A DNA stretch of 64,000 nucleotides from Dehalococcoidia bacterium (GTDB taxonomy: Bacteria > Chloroflexota > Dehalococcoidia > Bin125): positions 1,011,564 through 1,075,563 of the forward strand of contig OZ244908.1 of the NCBI GenBank assembly GCA_965221705.1. The letters run 5' to 3'. Shown here piece by piece: positions 2,859 to 63,257 of this stretch. The notes below the pieces were generated by a model that was not told where the DNA came from, did no database searches, and was given only the letters and a program-made list of their open reading frames with translations. Position numbers and translations under genes: made by a program. How positions within the stretch are numbered: the first letter of the stretch is position 1; every line of letters begins with the position of its first letter.

Positions 2859-4177
<1,319 letters not shown>

Positions 4178-4256
4178 CAGCTCAGGCCTCTCTGCGGTGT
4201 CGGGCCACCGATGTGCGGACGCTGGTCAGCGCGGACATCGACTGTCCGCACTGATG

Positions 4257-4913
4257 TTAGGCTCCTGCGGCTGCGGCTGCATCACCGGCAGCGTCGCTCT
4301 CGAGGACGGAATCGACCAGGCCGTACTCCTGCGCCTGTTCGGCGTCGAGGTAGAAGTCACGGTCGGTGTCGGCGGCGATGCGGTCCAGCGGCTGGCCGGT
4401 GTGCTTGGCCAGGATGCCGCGAATGGTTTCGTTGTTGCGCAAGATCTCGCGCGCGGCGATCTCGATGTCGGACGCCTGTCCGCGCGCGCCGCCGAGCGCC
4501 TGATGCATGTGAATCGTCGCGTGCGGCAGAGCGAAGCGCTTGCCGGCGGCGCCAGCCGAGAGCAGCACCGTGCCCATGGAGGCCGACATGCCGACGCAGA
4601 TCGTGGAGACGTCTGCTTTGATCAGCTGCATGGTGTCGTAGATCGCGAGACCGGCCGTGATCACGCCGCCGGGCGAGTTGACGTAGAGCTGAATGTCGCG
4701 GTCTGGATCCTCGCGATCGAGGTAGAGCAGCTGCGCCACGATCACGTTGGCGATCTGGTCATCGATCGCCGTGCCGAGAAAGATGATGCGCTCGCGCAGC
4801 AGCAGCGAGTAGATGTCGTATGCGCGTTCGCCGCGGTTGGTCGTTTCGACCACCATCGGGATGATGTCGCTGGGACGAGTGAGCGTCGGGCTCACGGAGT
4901 TGCTCAGGGTCAT
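4257..4913 (-). CDS. clpP: ATP-dependent Clp protease proteolytic subunit ClpP
   Basis: Typical ClpP sequence ([37 protein letters not shown] catalytic serine). The exact start is uncertain. Confidence 0.95.
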
Positions 4914-5015
4914 GAAACCCTCCTTCGCGGATTAAGTGTAGACACGATTCCTGAACGCGCGATTGACCAGCGGACAGAGCCGCAGCGCGCCGTCGCGTCA
5001 GGTCGAAGATCGGGG

Positions 5016-6496: not shown

Positions 6497-7663
6497 TTAC
6501 CGCCCGCGCGGATTGAGGACGTCGTTGATCGCGTCTCCGAGGAGGTTAAACGCGAGCATGAGGACCAACAGGAAGAGCCAGGGGACCGTGAGCAGCCAGG
6601 GATAGAGGAGGAAGGTCGAGCGGCCGCCGGCATTTTCTACCAAGACGCCGAAGGACGGTGTTGGCGGCGTGATGCCAATGCCGAGCCAGGTAAGCACGAC
6701 CTCGGCGCCGGCGATCTCTCCCAATGACGCGCTGAACCCAACGACGAACCAGGGAAGGATGCCCGGAAACAGATGACGAATCAGCACGCGGGGCGTGCGC
6801 GCGCCGATCGTCTCAGCGGCGAGGATGTAGTCAGACTCGCGCAACGCCAGCACTTGCGCGCGATAGAATCGCGCCGATCCGGCCCAACCGACGAGAGAAG
6901 TGGCAAAGACGATCAGAATGTAGTCATCCACACCCTGTTCTATCAGCCAATCTTGTCCCGTGAAGGCCTCGATCGATCGAAACCATACCTCCCATGGTTC
7001 GCGAAATGCGGCGACCACCACAATCAGGAACAGCAAGCCGGGCATGGCCAACATGACATCCGCCAAGCGCATGATTAGTTGATCGACCAGTCCGCCTCGA
7101 TATCCAGCGAGGAGGCCAAATCCCAAGCCAAGAAACAGGTTGCCGAACACAACAGAGATCACGCTGATGATCAGGGTCGTGCGCAGCGAGTACATTGCGC
7201 GCGCGAACGAGTCGCGCCCATTGCGATCGGTGCCCAACCAGTGACGTGTCGAGGGCGGTTCAAGCGACTCATCGCCGCTAAGGACCAACTCGGTGCGGGC
7301 GGGCAACAGCGTGTCTGCCGTCAGCGGCCCGTATTCCTCAACAACTTCAGGGTTCAACTCTGTGAGCGTCGCGAGCCCTACATCCAGGCGCTGAGCAAAC
7401 GCGCCCAATGTCTCTGGTTGGCCATCTACGTCGCGGATCGATCGACGCTCGCTGAGATTGGTCTCAGTGGGATCCTGCAGCCCGATGTCGATGCCGAACG
7501 CGTCGAGCATGGTGTATGCGCCAGCGCCGTAGAGCACCACAATCACAGCAATACAGACCACTGCGACGCGCTTGCGCAGAATCGCGCGCGTGGCGCGCAG
7601 CCAGGGCGACTCGGAACGATCAGGGATCGCCCATAGCGGCTGATCCTGCGCGCGAGTCGTCAT
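6497..7663 (-). CDS. Peptide/nickel ABC transporter permease (DppC/OppC-like) with a long N-terminal extension
   Basis: Binding-protein-dependent transport inner-membrane component signature, multiple transmembrane helices, and adjacency to a DppB-like permease and a family-5 solute-binding protein. Confidence 0.8.
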   Translation of the reverse strand: MTTRAQDQPLWAIPDRSESPWLRATRAILRKRVAVVCIAVIVVLYGAGAYTMLDAFGIDIGLQDPTETNLSERRSIRDVDGQPETLGAFAQRLDVGLATLTELNPEVVEEYGPLTADTLLPARTELVLSGDESLEPPSTRHWLGTDRNGRDSFARAMYSLRTTLIISVISVVFGNLFLGLGFGLLAGYRGGLVDQLIMRLADVMLAMPGLLFLIVVVAAFREPWEVWFRSIEAFTGQDWLIEQGVDDYILIVFATSLVGWAGSARFYRAQVLALRESDYILAAETIGARTPRVLIRHLFPGILPWFVVGFSASLGEIAGAEVVLTWLGIGITPPTPSFGVLVENAGGRSTFLLYPWLLTVPWLFLLVLMLAFNLLGDAINDVLNPRGR

Positions 7664-8646
7664 GTGAATCGCGCCGTGTAGCGAATGCGAGGATCGATGA
7701 AGATGTACAACGCGTCGATTACGGCGTTGACGACGATGAACAACGTCGCCGTCAGTAGCGTGAAGCCGAGTATGACATTGAAGTCACGCTGCGTAATCGA
7801 CTGAAACACGAACTGTCCGACGCCCGGAACCCCGTATATTGTTTCAACGATGATCGATCCCGTGACAATGCCGACGATGGACAGTCCAAACACTGTTGAC
7901 AGTGGAAGCATTGCGTTGCGCAGGACATGACCGTAGAGAATGCGTCGTTCAGTCAGCCCTTTGGCTCGCGCGGTTCGCACGTAGTCGTCATCAATCGTTG
8001 AGAGGGCGCTCACGCGAACGAATCGGGCCATGCCGCCCAGCGAGGGCAACGTGAGGCACAAGACCGGCACAAGGAACGAGGCTGGGTCGCCGGGCGTCCA
8101 TACATTGGGGACGTTGAAGCCGAAGAATCTGAACACGTCATCAATGCCGTGAACCAACAGGACGATCATCAAGATGGTAAAGATCGGTGAGGGGATCGAA
8201 TCGAAGACTTTGAGGGACCCAATGAGTGTTGGATCTTGCCAGCGTCCGCGATGCACGGCGGCGAACACGCCCATAGGGATGCCGAGGCCGAAGACGATTG
8301 CCATCGCGATCAGATTGATCTGCGCCGATACCCAGATGCGCTCGCCGAGCAACTCCTGCACGGAGCGAACAGGCGACCGGTAGTAGTACGACGGTCCCAG
8401 GTCTCCGCGCGAGACGACGCCCCACACGTAGCGACTGAATCGCTCGATGTAGTTGCCCTCGAGTCCAAACTCTTCGCGAATCTCTTGCGCTCTCTGGGGA
8501 TCTATGTCGCGGGCGCCGGCGATGATCTTGACCGGATCGCCCGGCGCGGCGTGCGTCAGAGCGTATGTCAGCGCCATCACGGCGAAGACGAGCAGGGGGA
8601 CCAGCAGCAGTCGCCTCACCAAAAGCGGGATTGCGCCAGAGCCCAT
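7660..8646 (-). CDS. Peptide/nickel ABC transporter permease (DppB/OppB-like)
   Basis: OppB/DppB-like sequence with six predicted transmembrane segments. Overlaps the downstream permease by 4 nt. Confidence 0.8.
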   Translation of the reverse strand: MGSGAIPLLVRRLLLVPLLVFAVMALTYALTHAAPGDPVKIIAGARDIDPQRAQEIREEFGLEGNYIERFSRYVWGVVSRGDLGPSYYYRSPVRSVQELLGERIWVSAQINLIAMAIVFGLGIPMGVFAAVHRGRWQDPTLIGSLKVFDSIPSPIFTILMIVLLVHGIDDVFRFFGFNVPNVWTPGDPASFLVPVLCLTLPSLGGMARFVRVSALSTIDDDYVRTARAKGLTERRILYGHVLRNAMLPLSTVFGLSIVGIVTGSIIVETIYGVPGVGQFVFQSITQRDFNVILGFTLLTATLFIVVNAVIDALYIFIDPRIRYTARFT

Positions 8647-50149: not shown

Positions 50150-51229
50150 CTAGCTCACGGCCTCCGCGACTCGCGGTCGCGGCGCCAGCGGATGCCCGAC
50201 GGCCTCACCGACGCGCTCGAGCGAGCGCATGAGCCCGTCGAAGTTGTCGAACGTCAGCGACTGCGGCCCATCAGAGAGCGCATGGTCGGGGCTGTCGTGG
50301 ACTTCGACCATGAGGCCGTCGGCGCCCACCGCCATCGACGCGCGCGCCATCGGCTCGACGAGGTACCAGTGACCGGTGCCGTGCGCCGGATCGCTGACGA
50401 TCGGCAGGTGGCTGAGTCGCTTGACGACCGGGATCGCTGAGAGGTCGAGCGTGTTGCGGGTCGAGGTTTCGAAGGTGCGGATGCCGCGTTCGCAGAGGAT
50501 GACGTCGCGGTTGCCCTTGGACATGATGTACTCAGCGGCGAGCAGCCATTCGTCGATCGTGGCCGAAAGGCCGCGCTTGAGCATGACCGGCTTGCGCGCC
50601 AGACCGACTTCGTCGAGCAACATGAAGTTCTGCATGTTGCGCGTTCCGATCTGCAGGATGTCGGCGTAGCGAGCCACGAGTTCGACATCGCGCGCGTCCA
50701 TGACTTCGGTGATCACCGGCAGCCCGGTCTCTTCGCGCGCCGTCGCCAGGTGCTGGAGACCTTCTTCGCCGAGGCCTCGGAACGCATAGGGAGAGGTGCG
50801 CGGCTTGAACGCGCCTCCGCGCAGGATCTGCGCTCCCGAGGCGGCCACGGCCTTGGCCGTCGTGACCATGTGCTCTTCGTTCTCAATCGAACAGGGGCCA
50901 GCCATGACGACCATCGAGCCGTCGCCAATCTTGACGCCGCCGACATCGATCACGGTGTCGTCCTTTTGGAACTCGCGTCCCGTCAGCTTGTACGGACGTG
51001 AGATGGCGATGACCTCTTCGACGCCGGCCATGCGGCTCATGGCGGTGCGAATGTCGGGATCGCCGATGACGCCGACGGCGCCGATCACGACTCGTTCCTC
51101 ACCGGGGGAGAGGTGTCCTTCGAGGTTGACTTCCTTGAGTCGGGCGAGCACACCGCGAACCTCTTCATCGGTGGCGCCTATTTTCATCACAATCAGCATG
51201 GTTCGATCCTTCTCGCTCATCTGGTCCAC
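50150..51229 (-). CDS. aroG: 3-deoxy-7-phosphoheptulonate (DAHP) synthase, class I-beta (KDO8P-synthase-like) with an N-terminal regulatory domain
   Basis: Core sequence (VMAGPCSIE..., [24 protein letters not shown]..., SDPAHG) matches AroA(I-beta)-type DAHP synthases with an about 80-aa N-terminal ferredoxin-like/ACT-like extension. Confidence 0.85.
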
Positions 51230-51274
51230 CTACCAGTGTTACTGGCATCGTGGCGCTGGTTCTGGGTAGAAGCG

Positions 51275-51679
51275 TTAATCCTCTGAATCCGCTGTCAGAT
51301 CGGGACGAAGGATTTTCGCCCCTCGCAGGTAGACGTGTTCCATCTCTCTCTGCCGCAATGGCGTGTTGACATGCAAGAGAATGCGCAGGCACGAGTCCAA
51401 CGCTCCTGGCACTTGCATCTCATGCGCGCACATCAGCGCGGCGTGATCGAGTTTGAACTGCTGTCGTGCAACGACGGCGGGGAATTCCGCGTTGACGTCG
51501 GGCGTCGTCGTGAACCAGGCCGAGGCGACCTCATCGATGTCGAAGTGGTTGCGGGCGATCATTTCACCGAGCAACTCTTCGGTGGCTTCACGAATGTCGG
51601 CCGGCGAGTTGCTGGTCACGGTCGTTGCGCCGCGAATGCCTCTTAGTCGCCAGGCTGATTCGGAGTCACGGTTCGACAT
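51275..51679 (-). CDS. aroH: Chorismate mutase, AroH class (monofunctional)
   Basis: LRGIRGATTV..., ...TPDVNAEFPA..., ...HVYLRGAKILRPDL align well with Bacillus AroH-type chorismate mutase. Confidence 0.85.
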   Translation of the reverse strand: MSNRDSESAWRLRGIRGATTVTSNSPADIREATEELLGEMIARNHFDIDEVASAWFTTTPDVNAEFPAVVARQQFKLDHAALMCAHEMQVPGALDSCLRILLHVNTPLRQREMEHVYLRGAKILRPDLTADSED

Positions 51680-51861
51680 CGTCAGGTGGTTCGCTGGTTC
51701 GGTTGGTTGACACGCGCAGTGTCGAGGGTTGAAGCGGGGCGATCAGCGGAGCGACGTAGGGCGTCGCGCAGCGATCTAGCGGCCAGCCACAAAGTCGCCG
51801 GCCGCGGAGATATAGACGCAATCGTTGAACAGCAGCTGAACGGTGATGCTGCGAATGCTCA

Positions 51862-52743
51862 TCAGGCTGTCTCTTCACTCCGGCGGCCGGTTACCACCTC
51901 GAGAAAGCGCTCGACGGCCTGCGGGCGGCCCTCGGCGGGCGTCGACGCGATAGTCGCAGTCAACGCTGAGCCGATGATAGCAGCATGCGCGACATCGCCG
52001 ACGGCTTCGACATGCTCACGTCGGCTGATGCCGAATCCGACCGCCAACGGCGTGTCAGTTTGCGTTCGCACGCGCTGTACGAACGACGCCATGTCGTCGG
52101 GCAGTTGGTTTCGTTCCCCGGTGACGCCGGTCAAGGACAAGACATAGATAAATCCTGACGCGCGCTCGACGGTGGACGCGATGCGCTCCTCGGTCGAGGT
52201 CGGCGCGAGGAAGTAGATCAGCGAGATGCCATGTTGGGCGAAGACCTCGCGCGTCGCCTCTGATTCGTCGGCGGGCAGGTCGACGACGATGATCCCATCG
52301 GCCCCGGCCTCGGCCGCGCGGCGGGCGAGCGGTTCGAGCGGTCGAGCGACCGCCTGGCCTGGTCTGTCGTCAGTCTCGGTCGAGTCGCGTTGCGCCTCTG
52401 ACCAGGCGAGGAAGGGATTGAGATAGCCCATCAGCGTGAGCGCTGTGTCGGGGCCTGCTTCGCGCGCGATTCGGACGGCGTCGAGCGCCGTGTCGACGGT
52501 GGCGCCGGCATCGAGCGCGACGTTGTAGGCCTCTTGATGCGTCGGCCCGTCAGCGATCGGGTCGGAGAAGGGCACGCCGATCTCGAATCCCGCCGCGCCG
52601 CCGCGCAGCGCCGCGCGGACCAAGTCCGGCGTTTCTGCGGGTGTGGGAAAACCGGCGATGAGGAAGGGGAAGACCAACGGTCCATCGCCGCGAGCCTCCG
52701 CCGCCGCGAAGGCCTCTCGGTAGCGCTTGCCTGGTTCGGACAT
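51862..52743 (-). CDS. trpA: Tryptophan synthase alpha chain
   Basis: FPFLIAGFPT, GFEIGVPFSDPIADGP and GFGIS motifs. Confidence 0.9.
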   Translation of the reverse strand: MSEPGKRYREAFAAAEARGDGPLVFPFLIAGFPTPAETPDLVRAALRGGAAGFEIGVPFSDPIADGPTHQEAYNVALDAGATVDTALDAVRIAREAGPDTALTLMGYLNPFLAWSEAQRDSTETDDRPGQAVARPLEPLARRAAEAGADGIIVVDLPADESEATREVFAQHGISLIYFLAPTSTEERIASTVERASGFIYVLSLTGVTGERNQLPDDMASFVQRVRTQTDTPLAVGFGISRREHVEAVGDVAHAAIIGSALTATIASTPAEGRPQAVERFLEVVTGRRSEETA

Positions 52744-52752
52744 CCTGCCTCC

Positions 52753-53508
52753 TCAACCGAGCTGTTGGGCCACGGTCGTTGAAAACCCGATCACATTGAA
52801 GCCCATGTGCGCCATCGACGCAGCGGTGAGCGATCCTGTGCGCATGTACACGATGCCGAGCGCCACGCCCGCCACCGCGAATGGAATCAAACTACCGAGA
52901 TCGGCGTGCAGCGCCGAGAATATCGAGGCTGAGATTGCGACAGCCGGGATTGCGCCCCAGTGCGGTCGCAGTCCGCCGAGAACGAATCCTCGCGCGAACG
53001 CTTCCTCGTAGATCGGCGCGCAGATGATGACGAGGAAGCCCAGCGCGACAATCACCGATGTGTGTTCGAACAGTCGAGGATCGCTAATCGTCGACTCGGG
53101 CTCGAGCGCCTCTACGCCTATGGCCTGGACGATCAACCCATACACCGTGAGTACCACCACGATGGTGAGCACTGCGCCGACCGCCCAGGCGACGTCGTTG
53201 GGCGTCGGACGACGCCAAGAGATAGCGTTCGAGCCGCGTCGTCGGCGCAGGATCAGTCTTGGCAGGATGAACCAGCCCAGCATGCCGGCGATCAGTTGAC
53301 CGAAGACGACGATCAGCAGTCCCGCCTCGCTGGTCGCCTCTGACGCGCCGTCGACCTCGCTAACGACGGCGAGCGTGACTGCGGTGACGAGCACCCAGAC
53401 CAGGGTGCAGAGCAGTCCCCAGCCAACGAGTTGCAGACCGGCCAGGCCGTGGTCGACGGACTGTTCGTCCTGGACGGATTCAGTGAGCTCGAGATCGGGC
53501 TGTGTCAT
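52753..53508 (-). CDS. CPBP-family intramembrane metalloprotease (CAAX protease / Abi-like), copy 2
   Basis: Multi-transmembrane protein with CPBP motifs (EExxxR-like EEAFARGFVLG, FxxxH-like IFSALHADLG, and HMGFN). Confidence 0.75.
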   Translation of the reverse strand: MTQPDLELTESVQDEQSVDHGLAGLQLVGWGLLCTLVWVLVTAVTLAVVSEVDGASEATSEAGLLIVVFGQLIAGMLGWFILPRLILRRRRGSNAISWRRPTPNDVAWAVGAVLTIVVVLTVYGLIVQAIGVEALEPESTISDPRLFEHTSVIVALGFLVIICAPIYEEAFARGFVLGGLRPHWGAIPAVAISASIFSALHADLGSLIPFAVAGVALGIVYMRTGSLTAASMAHMGFNVIGFSTTVAQQLG

Positions 53509-54377
53509 CCGACGCCGTATTCAATCAGTAGGACGGTCGTGACGCCGAGATTCCATGATGCATGCGTCAGCGCCGGCGCGATCAAGTGCTTGGTGCGGAT
53601 GTACATGACGCCGAGTATGAGTCCGAAGACGGCGAAGGGAATGATGACTTGCAGGTTGAAGTGCACGGCCGAGAACAGCAGCGCGCTCAGCGCGAGCGAG
53701 GGAATCAGCCACCAGACGCGATTCAGCCCGCCCAGCATGAATCCGCGGAAGAACGTCTCCTCGACGATTGGCGCCACGATGACAGCGCTCGCGGCGAACA
53801 ACGCTGCGTGCCACCAGGTGAAGAAGACGGTGACCTGAGCATCGTCTGGCCAAGGGAGCGGCAGCGCCCACTCCCAGCCGGTCCAGGGAATGACAGCCCA
53901 GTAGGCGAACCAGAAGGCGACCATGAGCGCCAGCGCGGCGGCTATCCACTTGGCGTCCTGACGGGTGGGTCGACGCCAGGCGACGAGGTAGTTCGCGCGA
54001 TGTCGCTTCAGGATCCAGCGTGGAATCGCCACCCAACAGATGACGGACGCTACCACCCCGCCTGCGACGGTGACGACAAACCACCAATCCCAACCAAGGG
54101 ACTCATGGGCCGACGTTTCAATGAGCAGAACGTACAATCCGCCGAGCAGAACGAATGAGAGCACCGTCAGAAACAGGACGCGCACGAGCATCCGCACTCG
54201 GCCGAGGGTCCGTTCGGGCATCGGTTCGGCCGAAACGGGACGTGTCGCGACGGGTTGGTCATCTGACGGCGGCGAGTACGGAAGTGACGCCGGCGGCGCC
54301 GGTCGGGCGACGAGCGCCAGGGCGGCCTGTTGGTGGGCGGGCCGCGCCACGAGCTCCATGTCGCCGTCGGGCGTCAT
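53505..54377 (-). CDS. CPBP-family intramembrane metalloprotease (CAAX protease / Abi-like), copy 1
   Basis: [20 protein letters not shown] and HASWN motifs. Tandem paralogue of the downstream gene, with 4-nt overlaps to both neighbours. Confidence 0.75.
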
Positions 54378-55555
54378 GTCGCTCGCGATTCGAGGGCGTC
54401 GCGGACGATCTCGACATCTTTGTCGCCGCGGCCTGAGAGACCGATCAGGATGACCTGGTGGGGACTCATCGTCGGCGCGAGCTTGGCCGCGTACGCGATC
54501 GCGTGCGCGGTCTCTAAAGCGGGGATGATGCCTTCCGTCTCCGAGAGCAGCTGGAGTCCGTCGAGCGCTTCGTCATCGGTGACGGAGACGTATTCGGCGC
54601 GTTCGGTCAGCATCAGGAAGGCGTGCTCGGGACCGACGCCGGGATAGTCGAGACCGGCCGAGATCGAGTGCGCCTCGGTGATCTGTCCGTGAGCGTCCTG
54701 CAGGACGTAGGTCCGCGTGCCATGCAGCACGCCTGGCGAGCCGGCTGAGAGGGTTGCCGCGTGTCGAGCCTGGAGTCCCTCGCCGGCGGCCTCGACGCCG
54801 ATCAGACGTACGGGGTCGTCAACGAAGGGGTGAAACAGACCGATCGCGTTGCTGCCGCCGCCGACGCAGGCGATGGCGACGTCGGGCAGCGCGCCGAGGC
54901 GCTCGTGCAGCTGCTGTTTCGCTTCACGGCCGATACACGACTGCAGCTCGCGGACGATCAACGGATAGGGATGCGGGCCGATCGCGCTGCCGATCAGGTA
55001 GTGCGTCGTTCGGACATTGGTGACCCAATCGCGGATCGCCTCGTTGATGGCGTCCTTGAGCGTCTGCGAGCCCGATTCGACGGGGACAACCTCCGCGCCC
55101 AACAACTGCATGCGAAAGACGTTGAGCGCCTGTCGACGGATGTCCTCCGCGCCCATGTAGACAATGCACTCGATGCCGTATCGGGCGCAAGCGGTCGCGG
55201 TGGCGACGCCGTGTTGACCGGCGCCGGTTTCGGCGATGATGCGAGGCTTGCCCATGCGTCGAGCGAGCAGCACCTGACCAACCGCGTTGTTGATCTTGTG
55301 CGCTCCCGTGTGGGCCAGATCCTCGCGCTTGAACCAGATCTGGGCGCCGCCCAGTTGTTCCGTCAGTCGAGGAGCGAACGTCAGCGGCGTCTCGCGTCCG
55401 ACGTATTCGCGCAGCATCTCATCGAGCTCGAGCCGAAAGGCGGGATCGTCCTGCGCCTCGGCCCAGGCCGCCTCGAGTTCGTCCAGCGCCGGCATCAACG
55501 TTTCGGGCGCAAACTGTCCGCCGAATGGGCCGAAGGCTCCTGATGTATCGCTCAC
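54374..55555 (-). CDS. trpB: Tryptophan synthase beta chain
   Basis: Canonical TrpB sequence with the PLP-lysine region ([13 protein letters not shown]) and GGGSNAIG motif. Confidence 0.95.
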
Positions 55556-56235
55556 GAGTCGTCCTCGCTCTTGGCCGCGGCGACGAACGCGCGGATCTTG
55601 GTCTGGTCTTTGACGCCGTCCGTCTCGACTCCTGAAGAGACATCGACGGCCCAGGGTCGCACGGCGCGCACCGCTTCACGGACGTTGTCAGGGGTGAGTC
55701 CGCCCGACAGCACCAGACGCCGTTGGGCGGCGACGTCGGCGGCGACTGACCAATCGATCGTCTTACCGCTGCCGCCGCCCTGTTTGGATCGAGCGTCGAG
55801 CAAGGCGATCGCGGAGGGCGCGCGGTCGATCTCGCACAATACCGCTGGCGCGTCCATGCTCTCGTCGACATGGACGGCGCGGACAACGGCCCGTTTGATT
55901 CGAGTGGTCAACGCCGGATGCTCTCCGCCGCTGAGCTGCACGATGTCAAGGTCGACTTGGTCGAGCACGCGCTCGATCTCATCTACTGACTGCCGCGCGA
56001 AGACGCCCACGAGCAGCGGACGGCCAGCCGCGCGACGTTCGCGCTCGACGGTGTCGGGCGTTGCTTCGAGGACTTGAATGCGCGGACCGAGCTCTCGCCG
56101 CACGGCTCGGGCGACGGGCATGTCGATCCGCCGCGGCGCGTCGGCGAAGATCATGCCGACGGCGTCGGCGCCGGCTTCACGAGCCCAGACGGCGTGCTCG
56201 ACTGCGCGAACGGAGCAGATTTTGACGAACGTCAT
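55552..56235 (-). CDS. trpF: N-(5'-phosphoribosyl)anthranilate isomerase
   Basis: KICSVR..., GADAVGMIF and [10 protein letters not shown]...VDVSSGVE motifs. Confidence 0.85.
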
Positions 56236-57017
56236 CGTCCCAACAACTCTCGCGCCGCGGCTCGCGGATCGGCCGCGGTCGATAGCGCCTCGCCGATCAG
56301 GACGGCATTGACGCCGCAGGCTTCCATGCGCTGCATGTCAGCTCTCGTGCGCACGCCGCTGGCGGCGACGACCGGGATGTGCGATGGAATCTCGTCACGC
56401 AGACGTTCGGTCGTGCCCAGGTCTTCTGTGAAGGTGTGCAGGTCGCGGTTGTTGATGCCGATCGCCGCAGCGCCCGCTTCGAGCGCCATCGAGGTTTCGC
56501 GCGCGTCGGTGACTTCGACGAATGGCGTCAGATCGAACTCCTCGCCCGCCTCAATCAGCGATCGGAGCGCGGTGGCGTCAAGCGTCTTTGCGATCAGCAG
56601 ATAGGCGTCCGCGCCGAGCGCCGCCGCCTCAGCGACTTGGTAGCGATCGACATGAAACTCCTTGCGCAGGATCGGCAGACCGCTGCCTGAGAGCGTCTCG
56701 ACGACGTCACAGAGATCGTCGTCGGAGGCGAAGAACGCCGGCGACGTGAGCACGGAGACGGCGATCGCGCCGATCTCGCGGTAGGTCGCGGCCAACTCGC
56801 GAGGCGACAAGTCCGGCGCGAAGAGACCCTTCGAGGGCGAGCCGCGTTTGACCTCGGCCATCAGTCCGACGCCGGGCTGTTTGAGCGCGGCGATGAAGTC
56901 GGTTCGCGACGACCGAGCGAGCGCTCGTTGGCGCAGGGCTTCGATTGGCAACGTCGCCTGACGTTCCGCGACGGCGGCGCGGGTGTCGTCGACGATTTGC
57001 TCCAACACCGATGGCAT
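56232..57017 (-). CDS. trpC: Indole-3-glycerol phosphate synthase
   Basis: ALKQ...GLMAEVKRGSPSKG, ...IGINNRDLHTF... IGPS motifs. Confidence 0.9.
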   Translation of the reverse strand: MPSVLEQIVDDTRAAVAERQATLPIEALRQRALARSSRTDFIAALKQPGVGLMAEVKRGSPSKGLFAPDLSPRELAATYREIGAIAVSVLTSPAFFASDDDLCDVVETLSGSGLPILRKEFHVDRYQVAEAAALGADAYLLIAKTLDATALRSLIEAGEEFDLTPFVEVTDARETSMALEAGAAAIGINNRDLHTFTEDLGTTERLRDEIPSHIPVVAASGVRTRADMQRMEACGVNAVLIGEALSTAADPRAAARELLGR

Positions 57018-57026
57018 GCGTGCGTC

Positions 57027-58109
57027 CTATGCCCCTGAGTCGGCGCCCGAGTCAGCGCCTGCGGCGATCGCCTGCGAACGCTCGACGAACAGTTCCAGCT
57101 TACGCAGGGCGCGTTGATCGTCGATGCATTCGGCCGCGCGACTGACGCCTTCGGCGAATGTGGGCACTTCTTCAGCGGCGAGCAGTCCGGCGGCGGCGTT
57201 GAGGGTGACGAAGCCTGTCAGCGCCGAAGTCTGACCACCGAGGACGGCGCGCATCATTGCAGCCGACTCGTCGGCGGTTGCGCCGCCCCGAACCTCGGAA
57301 AGCGCGACGGGTCTGATCTGCACGTCTTGCGGCGAGACGGTGAACTCGGACAGCTCGTCGCCGTCGATCTGCCAACAGGTGGTTGGACCCTCTGGCGAGA
57401 CCTCGTCCAGTCCTTCGTGTCCGTGCACGACGAGTCCGCGCCGCAGTCCGAGCCGACCCAGCGCCGCAGCCATGAGCGGTCCCAGCTCGGGTCGCGCAAC
57501 GCCGATCAGCTGATGCGTCGCTCGGGCGGGGTTGGTCAGCGGACCGAGGATGTTGAAGACGGTGCGGACGCCGATCCGACGCCTGATCGGCGCGACGTGC
57601 CGCATAGCGGGATGAAACCCCTGCGCGAACAGGAAGCCAAAGCCCACTTCACGGAGCAACTCGGCGGCCTGCGCTGGTTGGAGCGTGATCTGCCCGCCGA
57701 GCGCCTCAAGCACGTCGGCGCTGCCAACGCTCGATGACATGGCTCGATTGCCGTGCTTGGCGACGGGCACGCCGCAACCGGCCATGACGAACGCGGCTGC
57801 GGTCGAGGCGTTGAACGCGTGCGTCCCGGAGCCGCCCGTACCGGCGGTGTCGGCGATGCGGGGCAGGTCGGAGAGGTCGACTTCGAGCGCATGCGCGCGC
57901 ATCGCGCGCGCGAGGCCGACGACCTCATCGACGGACTCGCCCTTCATGCGCAAACCCGTGAGCAGCGCCGCCGCTTGCACTTCGTCGGCCTCGCCGGACA
58001 TCAGAGCGTCCATTGCCGACGACGCCTCGGCGTCGGACAAACTGCGCCGTTCGTCGACGATGGCGTTCAGCGCGGCCGCGAGGTCGGCCGTCGGAGCGGC
58101 TGAACTCAT
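57027..58109 (-). CDS. trpD: Anthranilate phosphoribosyltransferase
   Basis: DTAGTGGSG, HGNRAMSSSVGSADVLEALG and surrounding TrpD sequence. Confidence 0.9.
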   Translation of the reverse strand: MSSAAPTADLAAALNAIVDERRSLSDAEASSAMDALMSGEADEVQAAALLTGLRMKGESVDEVVGLARAMRAHALEVDLSDLPRIADTAGTGGSGTHAFNASTAAAFVMAGCGVPVAKHGNRAMSSSVGSADVLEALGGQITLQPAQAAELLREVGFGFLFAQGFHPAMRHVAPIRRRIGVRTVFNILGPLTNPARATHQLIGVARPELGPLMAAALGRLGLRRGLVVHGHEGLDEVSPEGPTTCWQIDGDELSEFTVSPQDVQIRPVALSEVRGGATADESAAMMRAVLGGQTSALTGFVTLNAAAGLLAAEEVPTFAEGVSRAAECIDDQRALRKLELFVERSQAIAAGADSGADSGA

Positions 58110-58747
58110 CGCGCCGCCTCAGAAGTCGCGGCGTCGGGGCGCTCGTTGTGCCAGGCCTCAGATTGGTCGAGGAAGTTGCGCAGCAGCGCGTGACCGACTT
58201 TGGTGCGGATCGACTCGGGGTGGAACTGGACGCCCTCGATCGGATAGTCGGTGTGTCGCAGACCCATCAGCACGCGACCGTCGCCGTTGTGACGCTCACA
58301 CCAGGCGGTCGGCGTGAGCTCGGGCGGGAGCGTATCGGGGTCGACGGCTAACGAGTGATAGCGTACCGCCTCGACGGGATTGGGCAACCCGACGAAGACG
58401 CCGCCGCCGTCGTGCTCGATCGGCGATGTCTTGCCGTGTCGAATCTCGCCGGCGGGTCCGATGGTTGCGCCGAACGCGGCGCCGATCGATTGATGTCCGA
58501 GGCAGACGCCCAAGGTTGGAGTTGTCGGACCGAACCGCTGCAACACGGGCACGCTGACGCCGGCTTCGCGCGGCGTTTTGGGGCCAGGCGAGATCACGAT
58601 CCGACGCGGCGCCAGTTCCTCGATCTCGTCGAGCGAGATCTGGTCGTTGCGATGCACGACGACCTCAGCGCCGAGCTCGCAAAGGTACTGATAGAGGTTG
58701 TACGTAAACGAGTCGTAGTTGTCGATCAGTAACGTATCAATCGCCAT
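58106..58747 (-). CDS. trpG: Anthranilate synthase component II (glutamine amidotransferase TrpG/PabA)
   Basis: LLIDNYDSFTYNL, GVCLGHQ (catalytic Cys) and the HPES motif. Confidence 0.9.
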   Translation of the reverse strand: MAIDTLLIDNYDSFTYNLYQYLCELGAEVVVHRNDQISLDEIEELAPRRIVISPGPKTPREAGVSVPVLQRFGPTTPTLGVCLGHQSIGAAFGATIGPAGEIRHGKTSPIEHDGGGVFVGLPNPVEAVRYHSLAVDPDTLPPELTPTAWCERHNGDGRVLMGLRHTDYPIEGVQFHPESIRTKVGHALLRNFLDQSEAWHNERPDAATSEAAR

Positions 58748-59543
58748 CGTTGGAGGCCTCGCGTTCTCTGAGGATGCGTCGCAGCGTGCGGTAGCCCTCG
58801 ACTGCGCGGGGGAATCCGCAGTAGGGCGCGGCGGTCGCCATGACGCCCTCGAGCTCCCGCTCAGTGACGCCGTGGTTGAGCGCGCCGGGGATGTGGAACT
58901 GCAGCTCGTCGGGCTTGGTCAGCGCGACAAGGATTGAAACGACCACGAGCGAGCGGTCGCGTCTGGAGAGTTGCGTCCTGGGCCAGAGGTCGCCGAAGGC
59001 GAATTCGAAGGCCAGCTTGCCGACCGCTCCGATGCGCTCCATGCCGGCCAACGCCTCGGCTGGATCTTGCGCTTCGTCTTGACCGTTGAGCGTGCGCATC
59101 ACTTCGACGGCGTCGCGGTGGCGCTGGTCGTCGTCTTTGTGATCGGCGGGCGGGATGCGATAGGGCTCGCCGTCCGCTTCCGACCACATTTCGACCAGCA
59201 CGTTGACCATCTCGTTGCCGGCCGGGAATCCAGAGTAGCCCGCGATCTGCAGGGCGATTTCGATCATCTCCTCGCGCGAGACGCCATTGGCTGGTCCGAA
59301 GCTGGCATGGAATCTCACCGCCTGCAGTCGCTCGAGCGCGCCGAGCATGGCGAGGGCGACGATGGTTCGGTCGCGTCGCGACAGCTCGTCGCCTTGCCAC
59401 ACCTGGCCAAAGACGTAGTCGACGACGAATGAGCCGAACGCGCCGTTCTGTTGCTCAATGGCGTCACCGATGGCGTCGGGTCGGCCGGTCATTTCGGACA
59501 GCAACGAGCTGCCCGCTGCGCGTCGTTCTGCATGTGTCGGCAT
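58737..59543 (-). CDS. Carboxymuconolactone decarboxylase (CMD/AhpD-like) family protein with two tandem CMD domains
   Basis: Two repeats of the CMD-family pattern (FGQVWQGDELSRRDRTIVALAMLGAL...IAGYSGFPAG and FGDLWPRTQLSRRDRSLVVVSILVAL...APYCGFPRA). The ORF extends to 59738; the preferred start is MPTHAERRAAG at about 59543. Confidence 0.7.
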   Translation of the reverse strand: MPTHAERRAAGSSLLSEMTGRPDAIGDAIEQQNGAFGSFVVDYVFGQVWQGDELSRRDRTIVALAMLGALERLQAVRFHASFGPANGVSREEMIEIALQIAGYSGFPAGNEMVNVLVEMWSEADGEPYRIPPADHKDDDQRHRDAVEVMRTLNGQDEAQDPAEALAGMERIGAVGKLAFEFAFGDLWPRTQLSRRDRSLVVVSILVALTKPDELQFHIPGALNHGVTERELEGVMATAAPYCGFPRAVEGYRTLRRILREREASNDGD

Positions 59544-59599
59544 AGTGATCCTCGTCTCAATGCGACCTGCGCGCCTGAAGCGCGAGCTTGGCGCGCATT

Positions 59600-60898
59600 C
59601 TACGGAGCCTCTTGCTGTGAGGTTGCGGACGGGTCGGAACGCAGTCGCTGCAGCACGCGCGCCGCGTCGGATGATCGGGGCAGGCCGCAGAAGGCTGAGA
59701 CGATGGCGATCACGCCATCGAGCTCGTCCCAGTTGCAACCAAGCCGATGCGCCGTGTGGAGGTCTTGTTCGAGCTCACGCGTGCGGCCGATCGCCGTGTG
59801 CATCGCCAGGACGGCGATCGCGCGATCTCGCTGCGAGAGCTGAGTTCGGTTCCAGACATCGCCCCAGGCCCAGTCGACGGTGAGCCGACCGACCGAGCCG
59901 AGCTGTCGTTGCGCGTCTTGCGCAATGGCGTCGGGACTGTTGGTTCGACCGGTCAGCATCTCTGACACGGCAGCGGCGTCTCGTCGCCGCGCGTCGTCGT
60001 CCTTGCCGATAGCCGGACTTGGCCGATACGGCTCGCTGGTTCGGCTCCAATCGGAAAGCATTCTGGTCAGGCAGGCGTTGGCGAAGGGGAAGCCGCACTC
60101 GACTGACAGCTGGACACAGATCTCGACGATTTCGTCGCGGCCGAGGCCGTTGCGTTCGCCGATCGATGCGTTGAATGCGAATGCGTCGACCTGCATCAGC
60201 GCGCCCGCGGCGGACATCGCGGCCAGACTGCGGTCGCGTCCATTCAGCTGATCGTCCTGCCAGATGTCTCCCCAGATGTGGTCAATGAGGTAGGAGCCGA
60301 ACGCTCCCATTCGCGACTCGATGGCGTTGGCGAAGTCGTCTTGCCGAGTGAGCTGCGAGAGCAGCGCGGCGCCGGCCTCGCGCCGCTCGTCGTGTGTGCG
60401 GGTCGGGATCGGCTCAGACGCGGGCGACGGCTCGTCCGCGAAGAGCGCGTCGAGGCTGGAGTCCGTCTCGAAGTCCCAACCCTGCTCGATTCTTTGGATC
60501 ACCGTCGAGAGCAACTCCGCTTGGGCCAGTGGCAGTTCGGCGATCGCTGAGCTGACGTCCCACCATTCCATCGCGTCGAAGGGGTTGTTCTCATCGGATG
60601 GCGCGCCGTCGAGCGCGGCCTCGACGGAAACGACGTATGCGTTGTGCACCGTGTGTCTGCCGCTCTGCGGTTCGTCGCCGAAGACCGTGTGCGCGTACGC
60701 GGCGCTGACTCGTTGACGCAGGAGGCGCGCGAAGAATCTCGGCACGGTCTGGTCGGGATCTTCGCTGAGCGGCGTGACATCGCCGGGCAGCCACCAGGAG
60801 TCGGGCCAGAGCGACTCGCGCTCGCGCCGCCGAAGCAGCATCACGCGTCCGGCATCGTCGAAGACGACGCCGTAGCCGATGATCAGCGACTCTGGCAT
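59600..60898 (-). CDS. Fusion protein: degenerate Nudix-fold domain plus two CMD (carboxymuconolactone decarboxylase-family) domains
   Basis: Nudix-fold N-terminus (GYGVVFDDAGRVMLLRRRERES...WWLPGD) in which the Nudix box lacks the REx2EE glutamates, followed by two CMD repeats paralogous to the downstream gene (WGDIWQDDQLNGRDRSLAAMSAAGAL...; WGDVWNRTQLSQRDRAIAVLAMHTAI...FCGLPRS). The start overlaps the trpE stop as TGATG. Confidence 0.7.
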   Translation of the reverse strand: MPESLIIGYGVVFDDAGRVMLLRRRERESLWPDSWWLPGDVTPLSEDPDQTVPRFFARLLRQRVSAAYAHTVFGDEPQSGRHTVHNAYVVSVEAALDGAPSDENNPFDAMEWWDVSSAIAELPLAQAELLSTVIQRIEQGWDFETDSSLDALFADEPSPASEPIPTRTHDERREAGAALLSQLTRQDDFANAIESRMGAFGSYLIDHIWGDIWQDDQLNGRDRSLAAMSAAGALMQVDAFAFNASIGERNGLGRDEIVEICVQLSVECGFPFANACLTRMLSDWSRTSEPYRPSPAIGKDDDARRRDAAAVSEMLTGRTNSPDAIAQDAQRQLGSVGRLTVDWAWGDVWNRTQLSQRDRAIAVLAMHTAIGRTRELEQDLHTAHRLGCNWDELDGVIAIVSAFCGLPRSSDAARVLQRLRSDPSATSQQEAP

Positions 60899-62406
60899 CA
60901 GTAGCCCTTGGATCCCTGCGTGGCGCGAGCGCTGCTCGAGCGCTGCTCGGCGAGATCGAGCGCGGTGAACATACCCATCGCCTTGTTGACGGTCTCCTCG
61001 AACTCCGCTGTCGGCTTGGAGTCGAAGACGATGCCGCCGCCGGCCTGGACTGAGGCGACCCCGTCCTGCATCACGATGGTGCGAATCGTGATCGCAGTCT
61101 CCATGCTGCCGCTGAATCCGAAGTAGCCGAGCGCGCCCGCATAGGGTCCGCGTTGATCTTCCTCGAGCTCGGAGATGATCTCCATGGCGCGAATCTTCGG
61201 CGCGCCTGAGACCGTGCCGGCAGGGAAGGTCGCGCGGACGGCGTCGAATGCGGTCGCGCCCTCGGCCAACTCCGCCTCGACGTGCGAGACCAGGTGCATC
61301 ACGTGGCTGTAGCGCTCGACATCGAGCTCCTGGGTGACGCGGACGGTTCCCGGTTTGGCGACGCGGCCGATGTCGTTGCGACCCAAATCGAGCAGCATGA
61401 CGTGTTCGGCGATCTCTTTCTCGTCAGAGCGCAGCTCGGCCTCGAGCTCCTGATCTTCTTCCTCTGTGAGACCTCGACGTCGCGTGCCGGCGATGGGATG
61501 GGTCGAGACTTTACCGTCTTCGACGATGACCAGCAGCTCGGGCGAGGTGCCGACGATCTGATGGTCTTCCATCTCGAGGTAGTACGTGTACGGCGACGGA
61601 TTCACGGTGCGCAGCGTGCGATAGACGTTGAACGGATGGACGAACGTCTCGCGGGAGAATCGCTGCGAATAGACGCACTGAATGATGTCCCCGGCGACGA
61701 CCAGGTCGATGATCTGTTTGACATCGGAGAAGTACGCCTCACGCTCCATGTTGGAGCGAATCGAGGTCGAGTGACCAGCGGGCATGGGCGCGTCGGCGGG
61801 CGGGATCGGCGTGTTGGACTGCAATCGGTCGACGATCTCGTCGATACGGAACTCAGCGGCGCGATAGGCGGCGTCCGGGTCGCCGTCGAGGCGCGCGTGC
61901 GTGACGACCTTGATCACGTGCTTGAGGTGGTCGAAGAGCAGCACCGTGTCGACGAACTGAAACAGCGCCTCGGGCAGTCCGTGCGGATCGTGTTCGGCCG
62001 GCTGCACTCGAGGCTCGAAGTGGCGGATCGACTCGTAGCTGAGATAGCCGACTGCGCCGCCGAGGAACGGTGGCAGGTCTGGATTGGGCAACGGATTGAA
62101 GCGCTTGAGTTCCGCTTCGATCTCATCCAGTGGATCGACGTCGCCGCCCGCGGGCGCGCGAAAGACTCGATACGGCTCGGTGCCGATAAACGAGTAGCGG
62201 CTCGGGCGTTCGCCTCCCTCGACCGACTCGAGCAGGAACGAGTAGGCGCCGCGTTTGACCTTGAGGAAGGCCGAAACGGGCGTCTCGAGGTCGGCGAGCA
62301 CCTCTCGATAGACGGTCGCGTAGTTTGCGTTGCCCGACGCCTGGGCGTCAGCGGCGAGCTGCTTGAATGTGTCGAGACTGGGTGTGGTGAGTCCGGGCGA
62401 GGACAT
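60898..62406 (-). CDS. trpE: Anthranilate synthase component I
   Basis: Canonical TrpE sequence (LLESVEGGERPSRYSFIG..., ...GAVGYLSYE..., ...SPELLV..., ...GTLSGAPKIRAMEII...GPYAGALGYF) starting MSSPGLTT. Confidence 0.95.
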   Translation of the reverse strand: MSSPGLTTPSLDTFKQLAADAQASGNANYATVYREVLADLETPVSAFLKVKRGAYSFLLESVEGGERPSRYSFIGTEPYRVFRAPAGGDVDPLDEIEAELKRFNPLPNPDLPPFLGGAVGYLSYESIRHFEPRVQPAEHDPHGLPEALFQFVDTVLLFDHLKHVIKVVTHARLDGDPDAAYRAAEFRIDEIVDRLQSNTPIPPADAPMPAGHSTSIRSNMEREAYFSDVKQIIDLVVAGDIIQCVYSQRFSRETFVHPFNVYRTLRTVNPSPYTYYLEMEDHQIVGTSPELLVIVEDGKVSTHPIAGTRRRGLTEEEDQELEAELRSDEKEIAEHVMLLDLGRNDIGRVAKPGTVRVTQELDVERYSHVMHLVSHVEAELAEGATAFDAVRATFPAGTVSGAPKIRAMEIISELEEDQRGPYAGALGYFGFSGSMETAITIRTIVMQDGVASVQAGGGIVFDSKPTAEFEETVNKAMGMFTALDLAEQRSSSARATQGSKGY

Positions 62407-62427
62407 ATGCGGTCACTCCGGGTGTCA

Positions 62428-62459
62428 GTGTCGATAGCGCGCAGAGACGCTGTCGACAC
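62428..62459 (-). promoter_or_regulatory. Strong near-perfect hairpin (12-bp stem, 8-nt loop) in the trpE 5' leader, about 20 nt upstream of the start codon; possible attenuator or terminator
   Basis: The minus-strand sequence gtgtcgaCagcg-tctctgcg-cgctAtcgacac forms 11 of 12 base pairs. It lies in a 233-nt untranslated leader between gmk and trpE. Confidence 0.3.
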
Positions 62460-62639
62460 TCGGCGAATGGGCTGATGATCAGCCTCGCCAGACCCCTTGG
62501 CCGCCGGAGGTGTGACATTGAGCGGAGGGACGCAGCGGCGCCACGAGTTCAGTGGTTCTGTCTCGCCGGTGAATCGGCATGGTCGACTCCGCGCCTCACC
62601 TTCGTACCGCCAGCTTAGGCTAACTGACCCGTCCAGCGC

Positions 62640-63257
62640 TCAGCAACGTAGCGTAGATGACTGGTTGGCGGTCGACCGGAGTTCGCGTTCCCGTTGAATC
62701 AGCTCGAGCAGCTCGGCGGCGGCATCGTGATGCGCGTCGTCGTCGTTGATGATCACGGCGTCGAACCAGCCGGACTCGGACATCTCGGCGGATGCCGCGG
62801 CGAGGCGGCGGGCGATCTCAACTTCGCTCTCCGCGCCTCGCTCTCGCATGCGTCGTTCGAGCGCGTCTGCGTTGGGCGCCGTGATGAACACGAGCAGCGG
62901 GTCGGCCAGATTCCGCTTCAGCGACCGCGCGCCCTGGACATCGGTGCGCAGGATTACGGTCCGTCCCTGCTCGAGCAGCGCCTCGACAGCGGCTCGAGGC
63001 ACGCCGCTGCGGTGTCCGTAGACCTCGGCGTGTTCGAGGAAGGCGTCGGCGCTGAGCCAGCGATCGAATTCCGCTTCGCTGAGGAAGACGTGATGCACGC
63101 CTGCGATCTCGCCGGAGCGCGGAGCGCGCGTCTTGACGGTTGCGACCTTCGCCAGCGAGGCGTCACTCGCCATGGCTGCTTCGATCACGGTGTCTTTGCC
63201 CGCTCCGGACGGACCGGAGACCACGACCACCAGCGGCGGCGGCTCAGTCGGCGACAT
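62640..63257 (-). CDS. gmk: Guanylate kinase
   Basis: P-loop VVVSGPSGAGKDT and the following GMP-binding region (KTRAPRSGEIAGVHHVF...FLEHAEVYG). Confidence 0.85.
   Translation of the reverse strand: MSPTEPPPLVVVVSGPSGAGKDTVIEAAMASDASLAKVATVKTRAPRSGEIAGVHHVFLSEAEFDRWLSADAFLEHAEVYGHRSGVPRAAVEALLEQGRTVILRTDVQGARSLKRNLADPLLVFITAPNADALERRMRERGAESEVEIARRLAAASAEMSESGWFDAVIINDDDAHHDAAAELLELIQRERELRSTANQSSTLRC

Follow-up and report, generated by a model that had tools for sequence, protein, structure and literature searches.

What are two genes for putative intramembrane proteases doing between trpB and trpA, the genes for the beta and alpha subunits of tryptophan synthase? The question is raised by a stretch of 64,000 nt from a Dehalococcoidia bacterium (assembly GCA_965221705.1, contig OZ244908.1, positions 1,011,564 to 1,075,563; hereafter the window), in which the trpB stop codon is not adjacent to the trpA start codon, the two being 1,630 nt apart (52744-54373). 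The intervening open reading frames (ORFs), here called CPBP1 and CPBP2, had been described in a sequence-only reading as paralogous members of the CPBP family wedged into a core biosynthetic operon. The coordinates, the gene identities and the paralogy agree with the ORF list, with Pfam and with pairwise comparison (36% identity over 193 aa, E-value 1e-29), and a non-trp insert at the trpB/trpA junction is indeed unusual, although such inserts have been reported before (PMC2395257). "Wedged", if taken to mean a recent event, is the wrong word, since the CPBP gene is an old, vertically inherited member of the operon, found without exception in the determinable Dehalococcoidia-labelled genomes sampled, and it underwent duplication in the lineage of the window. 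As to its role, we see about an even chance that the locus provides a housekeeping membrane protease (here a pair of them), the dosage of which would be tied to a steadily expressed essential aromatic operon.

Both proteins match the Rce1-like family PF02517 with scores (71.1 bits for CPBP1 and 65.5 bits for CPBP2) far above the Pfam cut-off of 22.4. The EExxxR, FxxxH and HxxxN motifs to which the sequence-only reading had drawn attention are intact in both proteins and conserved in the orthologues examined (Table 1), as judged from an alignment of 18 CPBP1 orthologues and, for CPBP2, from an alignment of 34 sequences with identities in the range of 19-68%; the same pattern recurs in a 63-sequence alignment across all groups. 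The sole broken HxxxN/D motif occurs in the CPBP2 of a single relative (L049; locus numbers are ours), where aroH is likewise split into two frames. Structural models of both proteins exhibit the Rce1/SpdC helical membrane fold. The pairwise ratios of nonsynonymous to synonymous substitution rates (dN/dS) are 0.15-0.41 for CPBP1 and 0.12-0.25 for CPBP2, compared with 0.06-0.22 for trpA and 0.02-0.22 for trpB in the same genome pairs, which indicates that purifying selection acts on both CPBP genes, if somewhat less strictly than on their neighbours. The numbers of homologues found in the database (28 close ones for CPBP1 and 88 for CPBP2), taken together with dN/dS values of 0.12-0.41, argue that a chance pair of ORFs is excluded. 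Altogether, the two ORFs look like genuine CPBP/Rce1-like glutamic-type intramembrane endopeptidases, apparently catalytically competent, with the proteolytic activity itself inferred from the conserved catalytic residues. Rce1, the type II CAAX prenyl endopeptidase of Methanococcus maripaludis (4CAD), shares with them the Pfam match and all three motifs; it differs in that the proteins described here are only ~14-15% identical to it and are encoded inside a trp operon. We know of no evidence for prenylated CAAX substrates in bacteria. None of the curated NCBIfam subfamilies of CPBP proteins (MroQ, the myxosortases MrtX, PEP-CTERM CAAX, LnsB, ABC-permease/CPBP and others) reaches its cut-off; the best match, NF041647, scored 54.6 and 72.2 bits where 435 are required, and all others stayed far below theirs. 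The proteins have been filed as new members of the CPBP superfamily.

In the relatives that were surveyed the CPBP genes are in place, and a plain trpBA pair is not what one finds. Wherever the source name of a homologue gives a taxon, it is Chloroflexi or Chloroflexota, and all taxon-labelled cluster members carry a Dehalococcoidia label. The scan of species-representative genomes included 15 metagenome-assembled genomes of the tandem clade (Dehalococcoidia/Chloroflexota, several of them closed chromosomes of 2.7-3.7 Mb), and the gene order trpE-CMD-CMD-trpG-D-C-F-B-CPBP1-CPBP2-trpA-aroH-DAHPS, in which CMD stands for a carboxymuconolactone decarboxylase/AhpD-like gene and DAHPS for DAHP synthase, is identical in 15/15. 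Some related metagenome-assembled genomes have bin names in the style of sponge studies (RHO2_bin_60, IRC2_bin_8), which hints at an origin in marine sponges. In the same scan the CPBP gene is linked to a downstream trpA or aroH in 30/30 genomes labelled Dehalococcoidia, Dehalococcoidales or Chloroflexota that offer enough flanking sequence, and in 0/10 loci from other phyla (cyanobacteria, Actinomycetes, Firmicutes, Pirellulales, Myxococcota, Sulfurifustaceae or uncultured bacteria).

The usual state is one CPBP gene, and the tandem pair marks a single subclade. A single CPBP gene between trpB and trpA (state A) is found in L050, L051, L109 (a locus of 37% GC, with Tara Oceans records in its protein cluster) and another 19 metagenome loci. 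In state B (group B), represented by L021 and 18 others, the order is CPBP-trpA-DAHPS with unrelated genes upstream and no trpB there, and in state C (group C; L035, L052-L057 and others) it is rph-CPBP-aroH-DAHPS-ribF-tyrS without trpA. The tally over 131 non-duplicate loci gives 75 with CPBP followed by trpA, 13 with CPBP followed by aroH, 29 unlinked and 11 left undetermined by a contig end. One metagenome locus, L061, carries an acyl-CoA dehydrogenase gene (3756-5024) between trpB and the single CPBP gene; this insertion implies that the trpB/CPBP junction is breakable while the CPBP-trpA junction persists.

Which of the two tandem copies continues the ancestral gene? A search with CPBP2 retrieves the single-copy genes (P0122, 43%; P0124, 39%), a search with CPBP1 does not, and a neighbour-joining tree built on the catalytic core places CPBP2 together with the single-copy genes of L048, L050 and L051, with CPBP1 as their sister. 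Both results point to CPBP2 as the conservative descendant of the ancestral gene and argue for a tandem duplication in the subclade of the window, of which CPBP1 is the derived copy. L048 has a CPBP2-type gene only; in this locus CPBP1 is missing, and where it would lie there are ~790 nt of lower-GC sequence (7218-8000) with short direct repeats (cccttccgtcattcccgcgc) and no similarity to CPBP. An ORF of 192 aa between trpB and the CPBP gene of L048 was considered as a degraded CPBP1 and rejected, the stretch looking like low-GC, repeat-bearing non-coding DNA. Because L048 is devoid of CPBP1, the second copy either is dispensable or was never gained in that lineage.

CPBP1 is furthermore mosaic. 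Two species representatives, L009 (10004-11200) and L014 (10004-11210), whose segments are orthologous to positions ~53200-54377 of the window, are 88-100% identical per 100 nt across trpC, trpF, trpB, most of CPBP2, trpA and aroH, 87-92% identical in the first third of CPBP2 and 44-71% identical over the membrane body of CPBP1. The corresponding proteins are 98% identical for TrpB and TrpA, 89% for CPBP2 and 56% for CPBP1. The N-terminal extension of CPBP1 is nearly the same in the two species and the divergence begins at the first transmembrane helix; the differences in CPBP2 are confined to the first ~110 residues, while the last ~150 are identical. In the CPBP1 tree there are two allele classes (the window with L004-L012, and L013-L018), discordant with the flanking genes. 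The most plausible cause of these patterns is recombination that replaced a segment comprising the body of CPBP1 and the N-terminal third of CPBP2. This suggests that selection acts differently on the replaced parts, which may constitute a common surface that co-evolves. A CPBP gene that likewise diverges in excess of its flanks is known from the staphylococcal lnsB locus (PMC7387801).

How, then, are the CPBP genes and their neighbours coupled? The sequence-only reading placed 4-nt overlaps at every junction. This holds for trpB/CPBP1 and CPBP1/CPBP2, both of which are joined by ATGA, whereas CPBP2 and trpA are separated by 9 nt (TGA-ggaggcagg-ATG), which include the sole canonical GGAGG among the three junctions. 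CPBP1 has no GGAGG-type ribosome-binding site within 15 nt upstream of its start and CPBP2 has no GGAGG site of its own at its junction. Among the 18 tabulated loci of the tandem clade, trpB and CPBP1 are spaced by -1 or -4 nt, compared with +2 nt in the outlying tandem locus L049; the spacing between CPBP1 and CPBP2 is -4 nt in every tandem locus examined, and that between CPBP2 and trpA is +9 or +10 nt in most tandem-clade loci, +28 and +34 nt in two lineages, and -4 nt in L008, L010 and L011. Scans of positions 51200-55700 yielded zero promoter-like sites and, as candidate terminators, three weak sites inside CPBP1 only, not exceeding the expectation from shuffled sequence, for which reason the string from trpB to trpA is taken as uninterrupted. 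We infer that CPBP1 and CPBP2 would be translated by termination-reinitiation at the ATGA overlaps, with ribosomes arriving from trpB and then from CPBP1, and that the CPBP yield is probably a fraction of the TrpB level. Translation of trpA would restart from its own GGAGG, making the supply of TrpA independent of adjacency to trpB. The tight coupling to trpB that had been proposed is upheld, and the accompanying argument about the stoichiometry of the two synthase subunits is weakened, because a trpA gene with its own strong ribosome-binding site would solve that problem without adjacency.

The surrounding genes, identified by Pfam and by the gene calls on the identical public contig, form a co-directional minus-strand string, aroA-gmk-trpE-CMD-CMD-trpG-D-C-F-B-CPBP1-CPBP2-trpA, followed after a 182-nt spacer by aroH-DAHPS (Table 1). 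The order trpE-G-D-C-F-B-A is retained, interrupted by the two CMD genes between trpE and trpG and by the two CPBP genes between trpB and trpA. The CMD pair (58737-60898) is a second "foreign" insert of the trp operon, kept throughout the tandem clade and present in a reduced form in L048-L051; its proteins are fairly rich in Trp (3.0% and 2.8%) in comparison with the trp enzymes.

Table 1. Features of the trp-CPBP-aro string; positions refer to the window
Feature	Position	Strand	Evidence or remark
CPBP1, 290-aa Rce1-like ORF, divergent paralogue	53505-54377	-	PF02517
CPBP1 N-terminal extension, residues 1-58, Pro/Ala/Gln-rich, predicted disordered	54204-54377	-	predicted local distance difference test (pLDDT) <50 over residues 1-45
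CPBP1 motif EETFFR (E206, E207, R211; residues 206-211)	53745-53762	-	E207 and R211 invariant; E206 in 17/18 orthologues
CPBP1 motif FSAVH (H239; residues 235-239)	53661-53675	-	F235 and H239 invariant
CPBP1 motif HASWN (H272, N276; residues 272-276)	53550-53564	-	H272, W275 and N276 invariant
CPBP2, 251-aa Rce1-like ORF, conservative copy	52753-53508	-	PF02517
CPBP2 motif EEAFAR (E168, E169, R173; residues 168-173)	52990-53007	-	invariant in 34-sequence alignment
CPBP2 motif FSALH (H201; residues 197-201)	52906-52920	-	F197 and H201 invariant in 34-sequence alignment
CPBP2 motif HMGFN (H234, N238; residues 234-238)	52795-52809	-	at least 90% in 34-sequence alignment; invariant in 10-sequence cross-group alignment
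ATGA overlap, trpB stop / CPBP1 start	54374-54377	-	sequence read
ATGA overlap, CPBP1 stop / CPBP2 start	53505-53508	-	sequence read
Spacer ggaggcagg, 9 nt, CPBP2 stop to trpA start	52744-52752	-	carries GGAGG Shine-Dalgarno
aroA	from 63244	-	
gmk	62640-63257	-	
trpE	60898-62406	-	
CMD-family gene with weak NUDIX-like N-terminal part	59600-60898	-	
CMD-family gene	58737-59492	-	
trpG	58106-58747	-	
trpD	57027-58109	-	
trpC	56232-57017	-	
trpF	55552-56235	-	
trpB, tryptophan synthase beta, 393 aa	54374-55555	-	Pfam PALP 2.9e-47
trpA, tryptophan synthase alpha, 293 aa	51862-52743	-	Pfam Trp_syntA 3.4e-69
Conserved hairpin element in trpA-aroH spacer 51680-51861	51714-51829	-	covariance model R1, 106.5 bits
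aroH-type chorismate mutase	51275-51679	-	Pfam CM_1 6e-43
DAHP synthase with N-terminal ferredoxin-like regulatory domain	50150-51229	-	DAHP_synth_1 1.5e-80; DAHP_snth_FXD 6e-15

CPBP1 has several peculiarities of its own. Its N-terminal extension, in which L9, A14, Q16, P26 and P36 are conserved among the orthologues, is missing from CPBP2 and from the single-copy orthologues, and is predicted to be cytoplasmic because a cluster of Arg residues just precedes the first transmembrane helix. With 18 Trp among 290 residues (6.2%) CPBP1 has the highest Trp content of the operon proteins, compared with 0-1.3% in the trp enzymes (0.8% in trpB, 0.3% in trpA) and 2.4% in CPBP2; its orthologues have 14-20 Trp, 11 of which are invariant. 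This might render CPBP translation sensitive to the supply of Trp. Trp-richness was also considered as a trait of the whole family and rejected, the single-copy and CPBP2 proteins having 2-4% and some unlinked CPBPs up to 5.7%, so that the CPBP1 orthologues with 4.8-6.9% stand out, though not uniquely. Pairwise identity per 10 residues is 0.65-0.93 in the catalytic half of CPBP1 and 0.32-0.57 in the N-terminal membrane half, the variable part with the Trp-rich loops.

The orthologous CPBPs of other aromatic operons carry different N-terminal modules. In L056 (215-1240) and L057 (256-1281) the CPBP is fused to a DnaJ J-domain (PF00226), with aroH-DAHPS still downstream, and the group B proteins (L021 9686-10450, L025, L039) have an N-terminal zinc-ribbon-like CxxC...CxxC segment; both kinds of module are presumably cytoplasmic. 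TrpA of the window contains a lineage-specific acidic insertion of ~20 aa after residue 114 (residues ~114-136; 52330-52400). Its counterparts in relatives, 10-30 residues long and variable in sequence, are found in every sampled lineage with a CPBP gene between trpB and trpA, and are absent from group B, from L029 and from the matched TrpA chains in the PDB. The insertion could be a clade marker or a docking loop.

The two CPBP genes are resident cistrons of an aromatic-amino-acid supraoperon. In the reading to which we give about even odds, their expression would be tied to it and their products would cleave a membrane-associated protein or peptide, constituting neither a step of tryptophan synthesis nor a bacteriocin-immunity module. 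Bacterial CPBPs are involved in peptide maturation (MroQ), in cell-envelope integrity and in the display of surface proteins (PMC7387801). The same conserved blocks that harbour the CPBP genes carry unrelated housekeeping genes (rph, ribF, tyrS, scpA, gmk), which favours a generic role over one in the pathway. CPBPs are also known to confer bacteriocin immunity and, in the case of the myxosortases, to cleave C-terminal sorting signals. Taken as a prior, the known roles of bacterial CPBPs favour a housekeeping membrane protease. The suggestion of the sequence-only reading that the genes hitch-hike on the expression of the operon comes close to this and is a live reading. If the housekeeping interpretation is right, the chance that the substrate or partner is nevertheless a component of the aromatic pathway is roughly one in three. 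Several points weigh against a merely housekeeping protease. The upstream side has been rearranged in at least three different ways with the CPBP gene kept beside trpA or aroH/DAHPS, which favours a pathway role, and such linkage exceeds what simple hitch-hiking predicts. The variable N-terminal modules (Pro/Ala/Gln tail, zinc ribbon, J-domain) suggest that substrates or partners arrive from the cytoplasmic side, something that one would not expect from the prior of an envelope protease. The proposed reinitiation is deduced from the nucleotide sequence, and all loci were retrieved with a CPBP query, CPBP-less trpA/aroH loci of Dehalococcoidia lying outside the counts.

A rival idea is that of a pathway-specific membrane partner, in which the CPBP would tether, mature or degrade TrpA, chorismate mutase or DAHP synthase and thereby control flux after translation. 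We regard this as unlikely. In 88 of the 117 determinable loci trpA or aroH-DAHPS immediately follows the CPBP gene, the linkage survives the loss of the upstream trpB (19 loci) as well as of trpA (13 loci), and in some loci there is a 4-nt overlap with trpA (L051, L109, L008) or aroH (L035). The adaptor-like cytoplasmic N-terminal modules, among them the J-domain fusion followed by aroH-DAHPS, fit this view, as does the TrpA insertion, which tracks the presence of a CPBP gene between trpB and trpA. There is also a precedent for a CPBP fold in the regulation of a biosynthetic pathway in plants, BCM1 and BCM2, CAAX-protease-like scaffolds found by genetics, which organise chlorophyll enzymes at the membrane and have no CAAX protease activity (PMC7083845). 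As CAAX-annotated membrane proteins tied to a biosynthetic pathway they provide the best analogy for a pathway-specific role, the tie here consisting of operon context only. On the other hand, no bacterial CPBP is known to target a metabolic enzyme, the linkage is confined to one class and may reflect descent instead of selection, genes with no relation to the pathway (rph, ribF, scpA, gmk) show the same degree of synteny in genomes as compact as these, and the TrpA insertion may be a mere clade marker. A bolder version, which we consider distinctly unlikely, makes a dedicated CPBP protease a working component of aromatic biosynthesis. It would dock to or degrade TrpA, chorismate mutase or DAHP synthase through interchangeable N-terminal adaptors (Pro/Ala/Gln tail, zinc ribbon, J-domain) and so exert post-translational control over the pathway, in a class for which no trp leader was seen and with no Rfam match in the whole window. 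In the tandem clade the Trp-rich CPBP1, with 18 UGG codons in a reinitiation-dependent gene located between the Trp-poor trpB and trpA, would moreover let the amount of charged tRNA-Trp influence the output of the protease pair.

At the other extreme, the arrangement could be purely frozen synteny, with an unrelated protease gene that landed once beside trpA, was retained since overlapping junctions make its excision deleterious, and is co-expressed without adaptive meaning. This we find improbable. Compact genomes in which many unrelated genes follow one another in the same direction are as it would predict, deletion of the insert would harm the translation of the neighbours through the overlapping junctions, and trpB/trpA inserts elsewhere have been suggested to be "morons" (PMC2395257); yet the upstream junction has been broken repeatedly (by the ~790-nt gap in L048, by the acyl-CoA dehydrogenase gene in L061 and by other genes in 19 loci) with the CPBP never lost there, and the gene was duplicated with both copies kept under purifying selection. 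The immunity or abortive-infection role, or a part in the export of Trp- or indole-derived compounds, advanced in the sequence-only reading found no direct support, and we hold an Abi-like self-protection against a bacteriocin, a phage or a toxic Trp- or indole-derived product to be quite improbable. Abi/CPBP immunity proteins of lactic acid bacteria (for instance PlnI, SkkI and the tandem plnTUVW genes in bacteriocin loci) have in common with the proteins described here the superfamily, the motifs and the occurrence of tandem paralogues. CPBP1 resembles them also as a fast-diverging cassette: it is the fastest-evolving gene, with 46-67% identity while TrpB is 86-89% identical to the same-position TrpB in most related loci, its variability resides in the N-terminal membrane half with the Trp-rich loops, and the cassette-like replacement between L009 and L014 is typical of genes under diversifying pressure. 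With respect to the accessory, strain-variable distribution of immunity genes, the copies differ: CPBP2 or the single copy is core (30/30 determinable genomes labelled Dehalococcoidia or Chloroflexota), and CPBP1 is restricted to one lineage, missing from L048 and present as exchanged alleles in L009 and L014. The cassette-like divergence of CPBP1 is the one feature that hints at an interaction under such pressure. Against this stand the gene tables inspected at eleven places, which hold no bacteriocin structural, modification or export gene, no RiPP (ribosomally synthesized and post-translationally modified peptide) gene, no dedicated ABC exporter or other transporter and no phage gene beside the CPBPs, the neighbours being trp and aro genes, CMD, rph, ribF, tyrS and similar. 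The ancestral copy and CPBP2 are moreover core, single-copy, conservative and vertically inherited in the Dehalococcoidia sampled, the whole-gene dN/dS is <0.45, and neither export nor detoxification of small molecules is known for any CPBP. A non-catalytic scaffold of the SpdC/LyrA, LnsB or APH-1 type, with the protease activity lost, appears very improbable. CPBP folds have repeatedly been co-opted as scaffolds (PMC7387801, PMC7083845), and SpdC/LyrA of Staphylococcus aureus (6U0O) is without key catalytic residues (PMC7387801); the CPBPs of the trp locus keep them, with Glu and Arg of the first motif, His of the second and His and Asn of the last showing little or no variation in either paralogue or between the groups.

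The 182-nt spacer downstream of trpA contains a ~100-nt block that is more conserved than the flanking coding DNA and is present in all tandem-clade loci as well as in L048-L051, L058 and L060. The prediction for this block is a long hairpin (GCGGCCGGC...GCCGGUCGC) that AUCU/AGAU and GCGU/GCGC enclose, and of the 19 pairs predicted for the element 8 show changes on both sides; a second, variable hairpin follows, with compensatory changes recognised by eye. A scan of the whole 64-kb window against Rfam at the gathering threshold found no family, and an E-value scan of the spacer gave chance-level matches only. The possibility of a class-wide riboswitch was discarded, as the covariance model found the element only in the tandem clade and its nearest relatives. 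The element may serve aroH-DAHPS as a leader RNA or as a palindromic operator. The 233-nt spacer between gmk and trpE (62407-62639, minus strand) holds a 33-aa ORF (62479-62580) with a single Trp near its end, and a 33-aa ORF is called there in L003 too; nothing convincing in the way of a Trp-codon-rich leader peptide or attenuator was seen upstream of trpE in this spacer, which has no Rfam match.

Functionally uncharacterised genes have been described at the trpB/trpA junction of some Burkholderia and Flavobacterium species and of a contig from the Sargasso Sea (PMC2395257, citing Xie et al. 2003); trp-operon inserts were suggested to be either "morons" or helpers of the pathway (PMC2395257). 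The locus described here shares with them a conserved gene among the trp genes, including at the B/A junction, and differs in that the insert belongs to a recognisable protease family, is conserved in the Dehalococcoidia sampled, is linked to aroH-DAHPS as well and has been duplicated. Neither PF09534 (Pfam scan) nor TIGR02234 (NCBIfam scan) gave a match. Both models describe the Trp-operon-associated membrane protein family of actinobacteria, in which a membrane protein is likewise embedded among trp genes. In the aromatic supraoperon of Bacillus subtilis (aroF-aroB-aroH-trpEDCFBA-hisC-tyrA-aroE), which is regulated by the trp RNA-binding attenuation protein (TRAP), the trp genes are likewise co-directional with aroH and shikimate-pathway genes; that supraoperon has no membrane-protease cistron, and its gene order and its regulation by TRAP are different. 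Literature searches for CPBP/CAAX proteins together with tryptophan synthase or trpB/trpA, and for Dehalococcoidia together with tryptophan synthase, retrieved no description of a CPBP gene at this position, of its conservation in the class, of the link to aroH-DAHPS or of the tandem cassette copy.

Inserts at the trpB/trpA junction have precedent and no new mechanism is shown here, and it is the class-wide conservation and the mosaic CPBP1 that are noteworthy. If the linkage is one of expression only, the locus is still useful, as a clean taxonomic synteny marker for Dehalococcoidia, as a natural example of a trpA gene re-equipped with its own ribosome-binding site after the coupling to trpB was broken, and as a case of a duplicated membrane protease, one copy of which has become a cassette that is exchanged and diverges fast. 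Should the linkage be functional, the locus would provide the first bacterial example of a CPBP/Rce1-family membrane protease coupled to a core biosynthetic pathway. It would also account for one of the functionally obscure genes that comparative studies have been noting in trp operons since the early 2000s, and would open a way to the substrates of bacterial CPBPs, most of which have yet to be identified.

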